From: a virus
Lineage: Duplodnaviria; Heunggongvirae; Uroviricota; Caudoviricetes
DNA: 20,446 nt
Strand: one strand, 5' to 3'
Virus record (IMG/VR): IMGVR_UViG_2529293217_000011
Shown here piece by piece: positions 1-18,325 of the stretch. The translations under genes were made by a program, and so were the position numbers. Under the pieces are notes generated by a model. It was given only the letters and a program-made list of their open reading frames with translations. It had not been told where the DNA came from and ran no database searches. Each line of letters opens with the position of its first letter. Position 1 is the first letter of the stretch.

Positions 1-359
1 ATTTCGCCGTCTGCCTCCGCAATGGCCACCGCCACATCCAGCACATCTTCCGCTTCACGCGTATCGTGTTTCACATCCTCAATCTCGCGTAACGCGGCAC
101 GACGACCAATTTTAAAATTGGTATCCAGCTGACCGATAATAGTTGCGCTAATCGCATTAATTTCCGAGGTAAACGCAGACAACGCAGGCTGATTACGTAA
201 GACCTGTTCGATCTTCGCTTTCTCGGATGCCTCGCATTCACCATCTGCATAGGCCACCAGGTATGCAGCGTTAATCACCGCCTGTGCCAGATCGCGTTTC
301 TCAAACTTTTTAATTTCCGCTGCCGCTCTGCGGGTTTTCTTTTTGAAGATTCCAAACAT
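1..359 (-). CDS. Hypothetical protein, 5' portion only (continues beyond window start); possibly TerB-like
   Basis: Open frame on - strand from ATG at 359 (AAGGA Shine-Dalgarno about 9 nt upstream) running off the window with no stop; N-terminus MFGIFKKKTRRAAAEIKKFEKRDLAQAVINAAYLVAYADGECE. Not in the ORF track because it is truncated by the window edge. TerB-like assignment is a weak impression only. Confidence 0.5.
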   Translation of the reverse strand, partial: MFGIFKKKTRRAAAEIKKFEKRDLAQAVINAAYLVAYADGECEASEKAKIEQVLRNQPALSAFTSEINAISATIIGQLDTNFKIGRRAALREIEDVKHDTREAEDVLDVAVAIAEADGE

Positions 360-490
360 CGTGACGTTCCTTTGGGTGGGTGAGCCAACGCCCGGGAGCG
401 ATCTGCCCACAGAGAAAGTCACACTGACCACTCCGTAAGCTCACCCCCGAAAGGCTCTGTGGTTGATATGCGCCGGGCGTGGCGCAGATA

Positions 491-515
491 CAAAAAAGGC
501 CCGCCGAAGCGAGCC
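491..515 (-). terminator. Rho-independent terminator downstream of the tRNA pair
   Basis: On the - strand a GC stem (GGCTCGC / GCGGGCC) with a UUCG loop is followed by TTTTTTG; lies immediately 3' of the tRNA at 529-605. Confidence 0.55.
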
Positions 516-528
516 TGGAAAATAAGTG

Positions 529-605
529 TGGCGCGTTGTAGTGGAGTCGAACCACTGACCGATTGCTTAGAAGGCAATTGCTCTGTCCGGCTGAGCTAAC
601 AACGC
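529..605 (-). tRNA. tRNA-Arg (anticodon TCT)
   Basis: 77-nt cloverleaf read by hand on the - strand: 7-bp acceptor stem GCGTTGT/ACAACGC, D-arm GCTC/GAGC, anticodon stem ATTGC/GCAAT with loop CTTCTAA (anticodon TCT), T-arm AGTGG-TTCGACT-CCACT, encoded CCA. Resembles the argN/argO-type tRNAs carried downstream of Q in lambdoid/Stx phages. Confidence 0.8.
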
Positions 606-705
606 AGAATACCGATAATGGACCGCCATCGGGGACCCGCCCCCGCACCAACAACCCTGTTATGGTGTCGTCTGCTCTTCCTGATAAGCTAATGGCGGTT
701 TGTGA

Positions 706-781
706 TGGTGGCCCTTGCTGGATTTGAACCAGCGACCTGGCGATTATGAGTCGCTCGCTCTCACCACTGAGCTAAAGGGCC
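706..781 (-). tRNA. tRNA with anticodon CAT, ileX/ileZ-like (tRNA-Ile2; Met cannot be excluded)
   Basis: 76-nt cloverleaf on - strand: acceptor GGCCCTT/AAGGGCC, anticodon loop CTCATAA, T-loop GGTTCAAATCC, encoded CCA. Close to the E. coli ileX sequence as I recall it. Confidence 0.8.
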
Positions 782-1762: not shown

Positions 1763-2361
1763 TACGCAAACTCCAGTAGTTGTGCGGCCACATTTTCAAC
1801 TTCCTCCTGAGAGGAGAATTTACGGAACAGAATCCAGTTCCACAGCACATTCAGTACAGATTTATAAACCTGCTGAAACTCGACTTCGTCCATATTCGCA
1901 AAAGCGATGGATTTTGCCCGACGCCCACGGCTACCGTCCGGATAAATATGCTCGGTGTAAAATCCGGCCTGAATGGTTACCCACTCGCGGAAAGCCTCAA
2001 ACGACTTTAGCAACGCCGTATCCCGGGTTCTACGAGTCGCAACGGTGTTAAGGTATTGCTCTGCGGCATCACTCAGGGCTGGCGTGTGTTCCCGACCAAC
2101 TGATTCGCACAGGTAATCAACGAAACCAGACAGCAGTTCTCGTTCGCGAGGCGTGATCGCCCCACCGACCGGAGTCCAGTAATCGAATCCCAGTTGCAGG
2201 AGTTTGAAAAAACGCTTGTGGAATGCGTAGTTACGCACACGCTTAAAATCTGCGTGTATCCACTCACCTATTTTGATTTGATGCAGAAAATCGCAACTCT
2301 CCGGCGTCGCCGGGAGAAGTAAACCAGAAGAAGTTTGTTTGACCAGTTGTATATGCGCCAT
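1762..2361 (-). CDS. Nin-region phage protein, DUF1367-like, 199 aa
   Basis: Complete 199-aa ORF directly upstream of and coupled to the YbcO-like gene; the family name is an impression from context, not a search result. Confidence 0.6.
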   Translation of the reverse strand: MAHIQLVKQTSSGLLLPATPESCDFLHQIKIGEWIHADFKRVRNYAFHKRFFKLLQLGFDYWTPVGGAITPRERELLSGFVDYLCESVGREHTPALSDAAEQYLNTVATRRTRDTALLKSFEAFREWVTIQAGFYTEHIYPDGSRGRRAKSIAFANMDEVEFQQVYKSVLNVLWNWILFRKFSSQEEVENVAAQLLEFA

Positions 2362-2780
2362 TTCTCAATCTCTCGATGGCGCAGTGCAGCAGATGCCAGT
2401 TGTTCAAGCTAGCACGCAAATTGTAAACCAGAATGCCAGGAAAAAACAAAACCCGCCGAAGCTGGTTGTGTGCGGTTGCGTTGAAGTCTCCTAGCCAAAG
2501 AGTAGCGGTGACCACTCCCCGCCGATAATCTTAGTTGTTTAATTTCGTAAGCTAACTAGGCTAAAAGCTCTCTGTTGTCTGCCTGTTGTACAATTAACAA
2601 AATGAACAACGAACTAGATATACCAACGCCAGAATGGTGCAACAAATCCCAAACAACACAGCAATGCAACAATAACATATGTTATTTTCCTCTCACGGGA
2701 TTCAGTCCTGAATTCTCATAAAGCTAATCTTTTTTTAAAAACATACTGTTAGATCACATGCACTTTCTTTCTTAACATCG

Positions 2781-2808
2781 TTGACTTCGCATGCGAAGCG
2801 TTTAAAAT
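2781..2808 (+). promoter_or_regulatory. Sigma70-type promoter for the GHKL ATPase operon with an embedded 14-bp perfect palindrome
   Basis: TTGACT (2781-2786), 16-bp spacer, TAAAAT (2803-2808), about 50 bp upstream of the ATG at 2861; the spacer contains the perfect palindrome CTTCGCATGCGAAG (2785-2798). Confidence 0.5.
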
Positions 2809-2860
2809 CAACAATTTGCACTTAAGGTATTTATTTTCCCAAACACATAGAGAGTAAATT

Positions 2861-4252
2861 ATGACTGAGAACACGACTCCAACAGCAGACTTTAGTCCTA
2901 GTAAAAGATTTTTTGTAAGTATGCTAACTCGAGATATCGACTTAAACGATGCCATACTTGATCTGCTTGATAACTGCGTCGATGGGGCTTTACGTACAAT
3001 AAAAGACACAAAAAAAACTTCAAAACCATATGAAGGATTTTATGCGAAACTTACGATTAATAAAGATGTCTTTATTATAGAAGACAATTGCGGAGGTATC
3101 CCTAAAAGCTTCCGAGAATATGCTTTTAAAATGGGACGACCCCATCAAAAAGAAGAAGAAAATGAAGGCACCGTTGGCGTCTATGGTATTGGTATGAAAA
3201 GAGCCATTTTTAAAATGGGTAGAGATTGCTCAATACAATCGAATAATCCCGATGGCGCATTCACTGTAGATATAACACCTGATTGGATCGATGGTGATGG
3301 TTGGAAAATACCGATGCACGAGAGTGACTATGATAACAAAAATCCAACAGGCACAACTATAGAGATAAAAAAACTCCATTCTAATGTGGCACAAAAATTT
3401 AATGAGAGCACATATCTTACTGATCTCTTTTTACAGATAAAACACTCATTGTCATTTATTATTCAAAAAGGATTTAAAATAGAATTAAATGGAGTTGTTG
3501 TTGAACATAATCCGATTAACATCATAACTGATCATTCTAAAATAGAACCATACATATATAAAGCTAAAATAGACGATGTTGATATCGATTTAGTTGTTGG
3601 CTTCTATAAAAATTTAGAAGATGACAATGATGATGTTTTAGAAAAAAGGAGTTCTGATGATGCTGGATGGACTGTCATTTGCAATGACCGCGTTGTTCTA
3701 TATTGTGATAAGACACATCTCACAGGTTGGGGCTTTGCTAATGTACCAAGGTTTCATACCCAATTTATAGCAATTTCTGGGGTTGTTCGCTTTACCAGTA
3801 AAAACCCAGAAAAATTACCAATAACAACAACGAAACGAGGTGTCGATCTTAGTTCTACATTGTACAATGATGTACGAAATAAAATGATTGAAGGGATGAT
3901 GCATTTTATTCGATTCACCAATCAGTGGAAAGGTGAGCATCTTGAAGAAGGGAAAAAATTACTTAAGTCAGCTCAGTCACATGAAGCTCAATCTTTATTT
4001 GAAATTACCCCACAATCAACTCCAGAAGATAAAAAAAATAACTGGTCCAACCCTAATAGAAACAAAAATGAGTGGCGATATACACCTAAGCTGCCTACCC
4101 CAGTAAAAAAAAGCTCTACTGTACGAATAATCTTCACCAGAGAGAAAGAAGATGTTAAAATTTTATCTAAATATTTCTTTGGACATGAAGATGCTAGCGC
4201 TTCTGATGTGGGGATGCAATGCTTTGATACGGTGATTGAAGAGGTGAAGTGA
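2861..4252 (+). CDS. GHKL-superfamily (Bergerat-fold) ATPase, MORC/MutL-like N-terminal domain, 463 aa
   Basis: N-terminal motifs read directly from the translation: motif I LDLLDNCVDGA (cf. MutL ELVENSLDA), motif II IEDNCGGIP (DNGxGI), motif III GVYGIGMKRAIF, motif IV NPTGTTIEI. About 290 C-terminal residues with no motif I recognise. Low-GC coding sequence. Confidence 0.8.
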   Translation: MTENTTPTADFSPSKRFFVSMLTRDIDLNDAILDLLDNCVDGALRTIKDTKKTSKPYEGFYAKLTINKDVFIIEDNCGGIPKSFREYAFKMGRPHQKEEENEGTVGVYGIGMKRAIFKMGRDCSIQSNNPDGAFTVDITPDWIDGDGWKIPMHESDYDNKNPTGTTIEIKKLHSNVAQKFNESTYLTDLFLQIKHSLSFIIQKGFKIELNGVVVEHNPINIITDHSKIEPYIYKAKIDDVDIDLVVGFYKNLEDDNDDVLEKRSSDDAGWTVICNDRVVLYCDKTHLTGWGFANVPRFHTQFIAISGVVRFTSKNPEKLPITTTKRGVDLSSTLYNDVRNKMIEGMMHFIRFTNQWKGEHLEEGKKLLKSAQSHEAQSLFEITPQSTPEDKKNNWSNPNRNKNEWRYTPKLPTPVKKSSTVRIIFTREKEDVKILSKYFFGHEDASASDVGMQCFDTVIEEVK

Positions 4253-5241
4253 TGTCTGGACAATACATTCCCTATCACTTAAGGCATAATAAGTCTATTG
4301 ATAGAGAGATTTTTCTCGAAAGCCTAAACCTCTTAAGCAAAAGACTAAATATTCAAGAATATACATATATAGGTTTTGGTGGTCCGATGCTTGAAGATTT
4401 TAGAATCATGCATAATCGTATCGCTCTTTCTGATATGATTTCTCTCGAAGAACAAGAGTCTACTCACATCAGACAAAAATATAATTTGCCTTATAATTGT
4501 ATTGATTGTAAGCTAATATCAGCTCATGACTTTATTCTTGATTATAGTTTTTCTAAACCATCAATAACATGGTTAGACTATGCCTCCCCGAAAAAAATAC
4601 AAACGGATCTAGATGATATACACTTACTAAGTACTAAAGTAAGCTCTTTTGATATTTTGAAGGTCACCTTCCCCATAAATCCTAGTTCTTATTACCAACG
4701 TAGAGTTGGAGAAAGTTTAGATATTTTTAAAGAAGCTTTTATTAATTCATTAAAATCATTGCTTGGGAAAAAGTATCTTGATTTTAATCTTCAGATATCA
4801 AATGCAGATCTTTCAGATCGTAAGATTAAAGCTCTTTTAATACGAATTATTACAAACGCTTTTAGATCAGCAATAGAACGTGGTCTTTCAGGACGTAAGG
4901 ATAAGATTCAGTATTACCCATTATCCTTAAATCAATATAATGATGGCAGTCATACCATGTTGACAATATCAGGTTTTTTCTCCTCAGAACAAGAATATAT
5001 AGAGTTATCTAAGGCATGCGACCTTTCTAACTGGCAATTTTATTCAACAAATTGGGAAGACGTGCAAGAAATAGCAATACCAACACTAACAATTAAAGAA
5101 AAGATAAATTTAGATAGTAAACTGCCTGATAAAGAAGCATATCAGGCAGCCGCTGAAGAGTTCTCTTTAAACGAAAATGAACGGGATAACTATTATAAAT
5201 ACTATAGGTTATACCCTAACTTCCAAAGAATTATGGTTTAA
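4252..5241 (+). CDS. Hypothetical protein, about 330 aa, translationally coupled partner of the GHKL ATPase
   Basis: ATG at 4252 overlaps the TGA stop of the ATPase gene (TGATG); the ORF track starts it at GTG 4249. AT-rich like its neighbour. No catalytic motif (PD-(D/E)xK, HNH, PLD) could be assigned by eye. Confidence 0.7.
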   Translation: MSGQYIPYHLRHNKSIDREIFLESLNLLSKRLNIQEYTYIGFGGPMLEDFRIMHNRIALSDMISLEEQESTHIRQKYNLPYNCIDCKLISAHDFILDYSFSKPSITWLDYASPKKIQTDLDDIHLLSTKVSSFDILKVTFPINPSSYYQRRVGESLDIFKEAFINSLKSLLGKKYLDFNLQISNADLSDRKIKALLIRIITNAFRSAIERGLSGRKDKIQYYPLSLNQYNDGSHTMLTISGFFSSEQEYIELSKACDLSNWQFYSTNWEDVQEIAIPTLTIKEKINLDSKLPDKEAYQAAAEEFSLNENERDNYYKYYRLYPNFQRIMV

Positions 5242-6360
5242 ATATTCGGGCTGTACTCTTTTATTTAATAAATTGTACAGCCCCTTTAATATATATTCAG
5301 CAACTATTGGTGACACGCTATTTCCTATTTGTCTGAAACTATGCCATTTAGTTACATGAAAGCGAAACCAATCAGGGAAGCCTTGTAATCTAGCAGCTTC
5401 TCTTGGTGTAATCACTCTTGGATGATAAGGGTGGATCGGCCTGACGGCTTGAAAGCTTCCTTTATCTCTAGCGGTTCCCGCCCTTAAAGTCGGGCAAAAA
5501 CCATTTGGATCTAATCTTGTAGATCTTGAAATTTTATCAGTTTCCCCAAAAGATAAGGAAGCATAACGCTCTTGGACGATTTTGCTATGTAATGTTCCGG
5601 TACATCCAGATATGATATTATTTTTTAACTTAGCGATCGATTCTGTATCACCAACATTCCGAGGGATCTGCCCCCATAATTTTTCATAAAATCCCCCTTT
5701 TCGATCTTTTTTAATTGTTCGCCAACTCTCAGAGTCTGATTGCCAATTGGCATCGATAATATCTGGTAATCCATACAAAGCATCTTTTACAGTAACCGGA
5801 TCAATCATTTTAGGCATAAATACTTCATCTGAAATATCAAGCTTCAATGATTTTTTTACACCGATAAAAAAATATCTAGTTCGAATAGTTGGAGCACCAT
5901 AATCAGATGCTTTTACCTTGATGGGATCAAGAATATCATAATCACCGCTAACCAAATTAAATGCTTTATTTCTAATGCCAGAATATTTCTCTTGCATAAT
6001 ACCTGGAACATTTTCTGCCAAAAAGAATAATGGCTGTAATTCTGATACTAAACGGTAGAAATGCATGTAAAGCTGATTCCTGCTATCATCAGGATTCCCC
6101 TTGCCTATTGAACTAAATCCTTGGCACGGAGGACCGCCAATAATACCATCTATGGGCATATCGTTTTTAAAAAAACCCTTAATTATTTCTGCATTTAGTA
6201 AAGAAACATCTTCTTGGACGTGCAAACTTCTTGGAAAATTAATTGCGTGAGTATTAATAGCATGTTGATCAATTTCAACTGCCATTTTAACATCAAATCC
6301 AGCACGTGCAGCACCAAGACTTAGACCTCCAACGCCAGAAAACAAATCTATTACATTCAT
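5209..6360 (-). CDS. DNA (cytosine-5)-methyltransferase, 383 aa
   Basis: Canonical C5-MTase motifs: motif I DLFSGVGG, motif IV GGPPCQGFS (catalytic PCQ), ENV, C-terminal motif X QIGNSVSP. The 3' end overlaps the convergent partner gene by 33 bp (5209-5241). Confidence 0.9.
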   Translation of the reverse strand: MNVIDLFSGVGGLSLGAARAGFDVKMAVEIDQHAINTHAINFPRSLHVQEDVSLLNAEIIKGFFKNDMPIDGIIGGPPCQGFSSIGKGNPDDSRNQLYMHFYRLVSELQPLFFLAENVPGIMQEKYSGIRNKAFNLVSGDYDILDPIKVKASDYGAPTIRTRYFFIGVKKSLKLDISDEVFMPKMIDPVTVKDALYGLPDIIDANWQSDSESWRTIKKDRKGGFYEKLWGQIPRNVGDTESIAKLKNNIISGCTGTLHSKIVQERYASLSFGETDKISRSTRLDPNGFCPTLRAGTARDKGSFQAVRPIHPYHPRVITPREAARLQGFPDWFRFHVTKWHSFRQIGNSVSPIVAEYILKGLYNLLNKRVQPEYLNHNSLEVRV

Positions 6361-6392
6361 ATAGTTGCAACGTCTCTTATTAGTTTCTATGT

Positions 6393-6401
6393 ATTATAAC
6401 A
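6393..6401 (-). promoter_or_regulatory. Extended -10 element (TGtTATAAT) upstream of the methyltransferase gene
   Basis: On the - strand TGTTATAAT lies about 33 nt upstream of the MTase ATG (6360) in an AT-rich leader. Confidence 0.4.
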
Positions 6402-6791
6402 CAACTGTTCTTGATGTTTTAACCCCATAAGATAACCTCATAAAGGCTATCCCTTGAAAATACCGGATCGCATAAATTTAATCTTTCAAAACTACTTGTC
6501 TATTAATCGAGCAATTTAAGGTTGTTTTAGTCATGTCGATACCGACATAGTTAACTAAACCCATTTCATCGTCCAACAAATGGGGGTAATACACTTTGAT
6601 TTATAGTCGGGTGGGTTTTTCTCTATCTGCCTTTGGTGTTCATGCCCAAGGCAGATAGCCTCAAGCACCCGCAGCAATTCTACTTAACTATCCTTTTCCC
6701 GCAAATCGTTTTTATCCCCAGCGGCAAATCGAATACACAACCAGCGCCACCGCCATCGCAATTCCTACCGTTGTGAATGCTTCAGGCCAGG

Positions 6792-17949: not shown

Positions 17950-18099
17950 ATGAGATATGACAATGTTAAACCATGTCCATTTTGTGGTTGTCCATCAGTA
18001 ACGGTGAAAGCCATTTCAGGATATTACCGAGCGAAGTGTAACGGATGCGAATCCCGAACCGGTTATGGTGGAAGTGAAAAAGAAGCACTCGAACGATGA
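17950..18099 (+). pseudogene. ralR: ralR (lar, restriction alleviation), truncated at codon 50 by in-frame TGA; frame continues to 18144
   Basis: MRYDNVKPCPFCGCPSVTVKAISGYYRAKCNGCESRTGYGGSEKEALER then TGA (18097-18099), then in frame NKRTTGNNNGGVHV and TAA. The K-12 RalR I recall is 64 aa with TGG (Trp) at this position. Confidence 0.7.
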
Positions 18100-18136
18100 A
18101 ATAAACGAACCACTGGAAATAATAATGGAGGTGTTC

Positions 18137-18325
18137 ATGTATAAAATTACCGCCACTATTGAAAAGGAAGGTGGCACTCCTACTAACTGGACAAGATATT
18201 CAAAATCTAAACTAACGAAATCAGAATGCGAAAAAATGCTCTCAGGTAAAAAAGAAGCAGGCGTTTCCAGAGAGCAGAAAGTAAAACTGATAAATTTTAA
18301 TTGCGAGAAACTTCAGTCCTCGTGA
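18137..18325 (+). CDS. ydaC: YdaC-like protein, 62 aa as encoded (in-frame TGA, then 6 further sense codons)
   Basis: MYKITATIEKEGGTPTNWTRYSKSKLTKSECEKMLSGKKEAGVSREQKVKLINFNCEKLQSS then TGA (18323-18325), then in frame IALYSN and TAA (18344-18346). The K-12 YdaC I recall is 69 aa ending SSRIALYSN. Confidence 0.7.
   Translation: MYKITATIEKEGGTPTNWTRYSKSKLTKSECEKMLSGKKEAGVSREQKVKLINFNCEKLQSS

Follow-up and report, generated by a model that had tools for sequence, protein, structure and literature searches.

The question raised by this locus is whether the gene at positions 4252–5241 of a 20,446-nucleotide stretch of Caudoviricetes DNA (IMG/VR record IMGVR_UViG_2529293217_000011; the window, by which the whole of this stretch is meant) encodes an effector of a new kind. 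The gene begins within the stop codon of an ATPase gene and was originally predicted, from the sequence alone, to be the translationally coupled partner of that ATPase, devoid of recognisable motifs and the most likely place for a new effector fold of toxic or nucleolytic activity within a defence pair. Comparisons of family, modelled structure and gene neighbourhood give a different answer. The protein is an ordinary member of the known PF20553 family (Methyltransf_35), and the pair is probably part of a defence or addiction module completed by a C5 DNA cytosine methyltransferase (hereafter the methylase). With the ATPase assigned to the prokaryotic MORC proteins by alignment and structural matches, the novelty of this module relative to MORC systems predicted earlier lies in the absence of a nuclease and in the constant presence of a partner with a methyltransferase fold.

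The PF20553 protein, its modelled fold and its cofactor site

Inspection of the sequence bears out the open reading frame, its ATG and the TGATG overlap on which the proposal of coupling was based (Table 1): the TGA of the upstream reading frame (2861–4252) occupies positions 4250–4252 and the ATG positions 4252–4254, with one base common to both. The 330 codons of the frame include the stop, and its product thus has 329 residues, not the 330 originally given. Mechanically, the frame starts with a GTG at position 4249; the ATG is favoured both by RefSeq/PGAP and by the N-terminal alignment of homologues. This is a real gene and not a chance reading frame, as follows from its full-length Pfam match, from its 100% conservation in 173 of 5426 complete Escherichia coli genomes, mostly of serotypes O157:H7 and O111, and from homologues in many phyla, which group into approximately 2100 clusters at 50% identity.

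Against Pfam PF20553 (described as 'Putative O-methyltransferase') the protein scores 300.4 bits (E 2e-89), where the curated gathering threshold is 27 bits and coverage of the full model was required; residues 1–328 align with model positions 1–308 of 309, and all 36 aligned homologues match the same family. Its RefSeq entry, WP_000016656.1, is named 'O-methyltransferase' by PGAP, a name that derives from this match, and its PHROGs family, PHROG 19983, is listed as of unknown function. Domain fusions are absent from the best 150 of 2126 representative matches, all of which are stand-alone proteins of approximately 320–345 residues.

Other sequence searches yield little. NCBIfam returns nothing for the protein, and PADLOC-DB 2.0 returns no match at E ≤ 1 for either the protein or its MORC partner and only generic methyltransferase models for the methylase. 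Searches of solved structures (PDB), by single sequence and by family profile, give chance matches only; none of the 36 family members has a secondary Pfam match to another methyltransferase family; and hhalign aligns the family profile with E. coli RsmD and RlmJ at a probability of 0.2%, a value for which a likeness between the N-terminal YHLRxNK motif and the N-terminal motif of RlmJ was dropped. That no motif had been recognised is understandable, because sequence methods link the protein to no solved structure and to no other methyltransferase family. The description is fair for plain sequence comparison, but not in view of the PF20553 match and of an invariant cofactor site. Nuclease, helicase and transmembrane motifs, none of which had been placed by eye, are not detected here either, and the toxic or nucleolytic activity anticipated for the protein has left no such signature in Pfam, PADLOC, NCBIfam, the PDB or the fold search.

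Structure searches with a predicted model, of the kind suggested as a check, point to the class I fold of methyltransferases dependent on S-adenosylmethionine (SAM), and not to a new fold. The AlphaFold2 model, built from 36 homologues, has a predicted local distance difference test score (pLDDT) of 89 and a predicted template-modelling (TM) score of 0.87, and it presents a seven-stranded, Rossmann-like α/β core with a closing β6-β7 hairpin, preceded by an N-terminal helix. To this core are added a helical insert (residues 144–212) and a helical C-terminal domain (residues 245–329). Foldseek places Trm1 first (E 2e-6), with TM-scores of 0.3–0.45, and the modelled core is thus ordinary in its fold and the family distant from any solved structure. 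The RsmD-like proteins Rv2966c and HI0767, Trm1, RlmI/RlmO and RlmJ share with the model the seven-stranded core, the β1 glycine loop, the β2 acid, the β4 Asp and the N-terminal helix, whereas the PF20553 protein is only 8–13% identical to them, lacks a (D/N/S)PP(Y/F/W) tetrapeptide, carries some 130–170 residues without counterpart (the insert and the C-terminal domain) and has an obligate ATPase partner.

The conservation of the family was assessed in 84 unique sequences, 25–36% identical to the E. coli protein and drawn from Proteobacteria, Cyanobacteria, Firmicutes, Chloroflexi, Verrucomicrobia, Latescibacteria and other phyla. The positions that would form the cofactor site (G43, E66 and D109) are accompanied by twelve more with at least 98% identity. 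Within the motif I loop, G43 is 96% and G44 (G or S) 88% conserved; within the motif IV region, W107 and D109 are 100% conserved and position 110 is Y or F. D49, R74, W107, Y229, D231 and E283 are likewise invariant. Residues 1–9 have low pLDDT in the model, which would fit a tail that becomes ordered only upon binding of a ligand or partner. From this pattern and the modelled fold, the protein is predicted to be a binder of SAM or of a close analogue, with an active site whose polar and basic character is conserved.

The name 'O-methyltransferase' is annotation only and is unsupported. In a check for an O-methylation signature, such as the K-D-K-E tetrad of 2'-O-ribose methyltransferases or the D-D-N metal site of enzymes of catechol type, K14 and D109 prove invariant, K137 is replaced by Arg in 21 of the 84 sequences and there is no invariant Glu at the expected β6 position. 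A candidate K-D-K-E tetrad of 2'-O-methyltransferases was dropped on account of the Arg found at K137 in about a quarter of sequences. Fold searches do not rank O-methyltransferases above N- or C-methyltransferases.

The MORC partner and the three-gene module across species

The ATPase encoded directly upstream is, on alignment and structural comparison, a predicted prokaryotic MORC: four GHKL motifs, the S5-domain lysine and the MORC-specific motif are present, and in structure it matches MORC3, SMCHD1 and MORC2 best. The motif GhXhhpXXRhl is described as specific to MORC proteins by Iyer et al. (2008; PMC2292703), and within the corresponding segment G269, W270, T271, C274, N275, D276, R277 and V279 are invariant, as are T323, T324, K325 and G327 around the S5 lysine. 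The C-terminal 130 residues, comprising helices and a small terminal domain, match no nuclease.

To follow the pair across species, 80 loci, one per species, were retrieved by means of the family's most conserved peptides and annotated with hidden Markov models built for the purpose. In 79 of them the PF20553 gene is immediately preceded by a MORC gene; the one exception is a copy with a frameshift. Stop/start overlap of the two genes is seen in 71 of 83 scorable members (by 4 nt, ATGA, in 58; by 8 nt in 7; by 1 nt in 6), and translational coupling, proposed from the window alone, is thus upheld as a property of the whole PF20553 family. The divergence of MORC is tightly correlated with that of PF20553 (r about 0.7–0.76), and each is only weakly correlated with that of the methylase (r 0.2–0.4).

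The methylase is present in 67 of the 80 loci and directly adjacent to the pair in 62, where it lies upstream on the same strand (32 loci), downstream and convergent (22), downstream on the same strand (7) or upstream on the opposite strand (1). A single type of target-recognition domain, 155–156 residues long, is common to 60 of 69 module-linked methylases, by which the methylase is marked as a dedicated lineage and not a random neighbour. Loci without it are mostly truncated contigs or belong to a Nostocales group. The 33-bp overlap of the PF20553 gene with the convergent methylase gene was noted correctly in the original prediction, where it was suggested that transcriptional interference could couple the expression of the two; such a 3' overlap occurs in 16 of 24 convergent pairs, the gene layout is not universal and the 33-nt overlap is not a defining feature of the module. 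A Vsr gene, typical of the surroundings of 5-methylcytosine (m5C) restriction-modification systems, is found in 28 of the 80 loci. MORC, PF20553 and dedicated C5 methylase together constitute a widespread mobile module built on an obligate, translationally coupled pair.

Two additional proteins recur in a minority of loci: an HNH_5 endonuclease (6 of the 80 loci) and a second, longer GHKL protein encoded beside the methylase (9 of the 80). Apart from this second GHKL gene, no other neighbouring gene, nuclease included, recurs in more than 6 of the 80 loci. The second GHKL protein (approximately 550–610 residues, HATPase_c_3), the gene of which often overlaps that of the methylase (e.g. 8064–9851 in locus L026 and 9219–10961 in L037), possibly corresponds to the 'paraMORC1' described by Iyer et al. 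(2008). In a Rhodoferax locus (L023, 5607–12751) one methylase stands between two MORC-PF20553 pairs, and the second PF20553 gene is overlapped at its end by an HNH_5 gene. The window methylase has essentially the same sequence as the crystallised protein of PDB entry 3g7u (E 1e-254), on the structure of which no paper was found in the literature search. Among the Nostocales, four loci of Scytonema, Nostoc and Kastovskya (L015, L017, L020 and L021) carry the MORC-PF20553 pair at a conserved chromosomal site amid genes of ndh/antiporter type, with no methylase within 7 kb of the pair; the methylase gene may lie elsewhere, or the pair can do without one.

The module is carried by a range of mobile elements. 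In the E. coli prophage it occupies a variable cargo slot, which spans about 2361–8121 of the window between a DUF1367 and a DUF977 gene; the three module genes have a GC content of 33–37% in a background of about 50%. The DUF1367 flank is found in 1329 E. coli genomes and the module in 173. Other strains fill the same slot with a tetratricopeptide-repeat protein, a DUF262 (GmrSD-like) protein and an IS3 element (SE11), with two hypothetical genes (C8), or with hokD and proteins of the 'beta family' and the 'sce7726 family' (APEC-O117H42), and the slot looks like a defence hotspot. A Yersinia prophage has the module in the equivalent slot, with a PF20553 protein 32% identical to that of E. coli, and the Pseudomonas filamentous phage PfAC20 carries it as cargo with a protein 29% identical. 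In PfAC20 (Inoviridae; PP058144.1; locus L095, 280–3711) ORF1–3 correspond to MORC, PF20553 and the C5 methylase, and ORF9 is an additional short 'DNA cytosine methyltransferase'. In Ralstonia, Pseudomonas and Methylomonas the module lies in chromosomal islands with Vsr, integrases or genes resembling type IV restriction, and island companions elsewhere include integrases and Mrr_cat and ScoMcrA_N/NOV_C genes. Carriage on plasmids is rare.

Bacterial MORCs are not new to the literature as a prediction. Iyer, Abhiman and Aravind (2008; PMC2292703) predict by comparative genomics that prokaryotic MORCs with Dcm and Vsr act as restriction-modification systems, and regard bacterial MORCs as the source of those of eukaryotes; superfamily II helicases and nucleases, found in approximately 70% of neighbourhoods, are the partners stressed there. 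The present module resembles the MORC and paraMORC systems of that work in the family signature of its MORC, in the linkage to Dcm and Vsr, in its sporadic, lateral distribution and in its optional second GHKL and HNH genes, which recall the paraMORC1 neighbourhoods. It differs from them in having neither a superfamily II helicase nor a nuclease, and in its constant methyltransferase-fold partner, of which the text consulted makes no mention. A literature search on PF20553/Methyltransf_35, the WP accessions and bacterial MORC returned nothing relevant beyond this 2008 prediction and no experimental study. A paper on Vibrio WonAB/VcSduA that mentions paraMORC was set aside because it concerns different proteins.

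A restriction-modification-like reading and its rivals

The interpretation favoured here, tentatively and with a chance somewhat short of even, is that of a MORC-based module resembling a restriction-modification system, in which the PF20553 protein would be the SAM-binding subunit that engages DNA. It draws on the coupled pair, the dedicated C5 methylase, the frequent Vsr, the mobility of the module, its location in a cargo slot and the lack of a dedicated nuclease. In such a system the methylase would mark resident DNA with m5C, and the MORC-PF20553 complex would act on DNA that lacks the mark. The PF20553 protein would engage DNA in a SAM-dependent manner, either probing the target base, as the methyltransferase subunits of Type I and Type III systems do, or transferring a methyl group, and the MORC dimer would contribute ATP-driven clamping or looping, a role proposed by Iyer et al., and possibly nicking. 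Interference might come from the complex itself, by entrapment or compaction of DNA or by nicking through MORC; it might otherwise come from recruited host or accessory nucleases in place of a dedicated restriction endonuclease, a route that fits the HNH gene occasionally appended. The MORC ATPase could itself break DNA, since in vitro nicking, relaxation and a topoisomerase II-like activity are reported for plant MORC1 (PMC5651269).

The parallel with Type III (Mod/Res) and bacteriophage exclusion (BREX) systems is one of working principle only: self is distinguished by methylation, contact with DNA is made by a subunit of methyltransferase fold, and unmarked DNA is the target of an ATPase. 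The module has no helicase-nuclease Res, no PglZ, BrxC or BrxL, and no PADLOC matches; its protective methylase is a separate C5 enzyme and its ATPase is of the GHKL and not the P-loop kind. To our knowledge, BREX has no known nuclease, as is the case in the present module. Nor does the module qualify as a Type II restriction-modification system in the classical sense, for the methylase is present and no endonuclease gene is recurrent in the 80 loci.

Several observations weigh against the restriction-modification-like interpretation. A nuclease domain is detected by profile and structure searches in neither the MORC nor the PF20553 protein. In MORC motif I, of which the canonical GHKL form is ExxxNxxD, with a catalytic Glu in MutL, GyrB, Hsp90 and MORC, an invariant Asp (Asp34) replaces that Glu, and this suggests that ATP hydrolysis may be slow or regulated. 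The PF20553 protein lacks the amino-methyltransferase motif IV tetrapeptide and has W-L-D109-Y/F-A/V-x-P instead, and its structural matches, being generic methyltransferase cores with TM-scores of 0.3–0.45, give no pointer to DNA, RNA, protein or a small molecule as substrate. Its variable insert does not co-vary with the target-recognition domain of the methylase (r 0.18, in a weak test, as most methylases have one domain type), which lends no support to a matched sequence specificity carried by the insert. Six cyanobacterial loci lack an adjacent methylase, and neither MORC nor PF20553 is matched by any defence model of PADLOC.

A more specific proposal, and one we consider unlikely, is that of a nuclease-free epigenetic immunity, in which the SAM-loaded PF20553 protein would read the state of the site recognised by the C5 methylase and load the MORC clamp onto an unmethylated invader, compacting, entrapping or silencing its DNA as a prokaryotic forerunner of eukaryotic MORC silencing. 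The comparison with eukaryotic MORC and SMCHD1 proteins is apt in that the partner ATPase is structurally closest to MORC3, SMCHD1 and MORC2 and has a genetic link to a C5 DNA methylase; it differs in that the module's MORC has no CW, coiled-coil or hinge domains, and in that the logic is probably reversed, since eukaryotes silence methylated DNA, whereas here methylated DNA is presumably self.

The cofactor site, intact and invariant, also admits a reading in which the module is a double-modification cassette of anti-restriction or epigenetic purpose: the PF20553 protein would be a second methyltransferase active on nucleic acids, MORC would help in an ATP-dependent manner by presenting DNA, and the module would not serve interference. 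The nearest structures are RNA- and DNA-base methyltransferases (the RsmD-like, Trm1, RlmI/RlmO and RlmJ group), the module holds no nuclease, and temperate phages, which often encode protective methylases, are among its carriers. Yet the canonical amino-methyltransferase motif IV is absent, a modification enzyme has no evident need of an obligate, stoichiometric MORC clamp, the linkage to Vsr and the chromosomal islands recall restriction-modification systems, and such a cassette would be without known precedent; we hold this possibility improbable.

Less probable again is a cryptic nuclease site, either in the S5 region of MORC (the invariant CNDR...D283...H299) or in the PF20553 protein, in which case the module would be a genuine restriction endonuclease system, and one of a new type. 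The nicking and relaxation reported for plant MORC1 in vitro (PMC5651269) are in its favour, together with the many invariant acidic, basic and His residues of the S5 domain, and the core must act without HNH_5, seeing that this is appended in only 6 of the 80 loci. On the other side, no structural or profile match to a nuclease fold is found, and the invariant S5 residues include the MORC signature and are explicable by ATPase function alone.

Another idea is an abortive-infection module in which MORC would sense invading or unmethylated DNA and the PF20553 protein would be a toxic methyltransferase acting on host RNA (rRNA or tRNA) or on a protein and arresting growth. The ATPase-plus-effector architecture with translational coupling, the location in prophage cargo and the presence of rRNA and tRNA methyltransferases among the best structural neighbours speak for it, but the near-constant linkage to one clade of C5 methylases and to Vsr would go unexplained and PADLOC gives no matches; we rate its prospects as poor. 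Of the defence pair as first conceived, what stands is the mobile, defence-like context with a DNA methylase; what does not is the supposed novelty, the family and fold being known, nor is there a nuclease signature. Very improbable is a role outside defence, in which the pair would be a repair or maintenance accessory of Dcm-Vsr that either assists very-short-patch repair in the manner of MutL or regulates the methylase. In favour of this reading, MutL belongs to the GHKL+S5 proteins, Iyer et al. (2008) draw a MutL parallel in mismatch and very-short-patch repair, and Vsr accompanies 28 of the 80 loci.

The three-gene module is compact, widespread over most bacterial phyla and present in a tractable host, as prophages of E. 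coli O157 and O111, and one of its components has a crystal structure (3g7u). It thus offers a direct route to the function of prokaryotic MORCs and to their tie with cytosine methylation, and allows one to ask whether self can be told from non-self without a dedicated nuclease. A system of MORC and methylase is also relevant to how the methylation-linked silencing by eukaryotic MORCs arose. For annotation, a PF20553 gene is best read as part of a MORC-methylase module and not as an 'O-methyltransferase'.

Features of the module and the surrounding prophage

The window represents a Rac-like lambdoid prophage of E. coli O157, with an integrase, RecE/RecT, KilR, SieB, cI/Cro-like regulators, YdaT, YdaV and a Q-like antiterminator region. 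The features of the module are collected in Table 1; the total number of promoter-like sites in the region, as found by a consensus scan, is not above that in shuffled sequence.

Table 1. Coordinates of the three-gene module, its predicted motifs and its expression signals in the window
Feature	Position	Strand	Remarks
PF20553 (Methyltransf_35) gene; predicted class I SAM-methyltransferase fold	4252..5241	+	329 aa
TGATG stop/start overlap (translational coupling)	4250..4254	+	read from sequence
Shine-Dalgarno GAGGTG of the PF20553 gene, within the end of the MORC gene	4241..4246	+	from sequence; 5 nt before ATG
N-terminal motif Y8-H-L-R-x-N-K-x3-R18	4273..4305	+	100% or 99% conserved, 84 sequences
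Motif I glycine loop G41-F-G-G-P45, immediately following strand β1	4372..4386	+	β1 = residues 38-42
E66, acidic residue ending β2 (canonical SAM ribose contact)	4447..4449	+	99% conserved; β2 = residues 61-66
Motif IV region W107-L-D109-Y110, end of β4	4570..4581	+	β4 = residues 104-109
Predicted prokaryotic MORC-type GHKL+S5 ATPase	2861..4252	+	463 aa; HATPase_c_3 match
GHKL motif I, D34-LLDNCVD-G42	2960..2986	+	alignment; invariant Asp34 where Glu is usual
MORC signature in S5 domain, GWTVICNDRVV, residues 269-279	3665..3697	+	fits GhXhhpXXRhl
S5-domain lysine K325 (TTTKRG), expected phosphate-contacting basic residue	3833..3835	+	role by analogy with GHKL+S5 enzymes
C5 DNA cytosine methyltransferase, module-dedicated clade	5209..6360	-	383 aa; Pfam DNA_methylase E 3e-61
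Overlap of convergent 3' ends, PF20553 and methylase genes	5209..5241		33 nt
Promoter-like site 5' of MORC gene, TTGACT-16-TAAAAT	2781..2808	+	consensus scan, 10/12 matches; weak evidence
Promoter-like site 5' of methylase gene, TTAAAA-18-TATAAT with upstream TG	6393..6422	-	consensus scan; weak evidence
Low-GC cargo island with the three-gene module, variable slot of Rac-like prophage	2400..6600		GC 32-39% vs ~50% in flanks

Elsewhere in the window, the RalR/RalA type I toxin-antitoxin pair of the Rac prophage is found at 18065–18325 (+) and 18143–18321 (-), the RalA small RNA of Rfam (225 bits) being antisense to a DUF1187 reading frame for a toxin of RalR type. Two phage-borne tRNA genes, at 529–605 (-) and 706–781 (-), lie beside the Q-like antiterminator region and correspond to a tRNA-Arg(tct) and a tRNA with a CAT anticodon, the second of which is called Met by ARAGORN and Ile by RefSeq; a mechanical reading frame at 310–654 (-) overlaps the tRNA-Arg gene and is probably spurious. 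A frameshifted DUF4014 pseudogene, marked by RefSeq in the identical O157:H7 prophage (locus L001, 13854–14071), corresponds to 7553–7770 (-) of the window.

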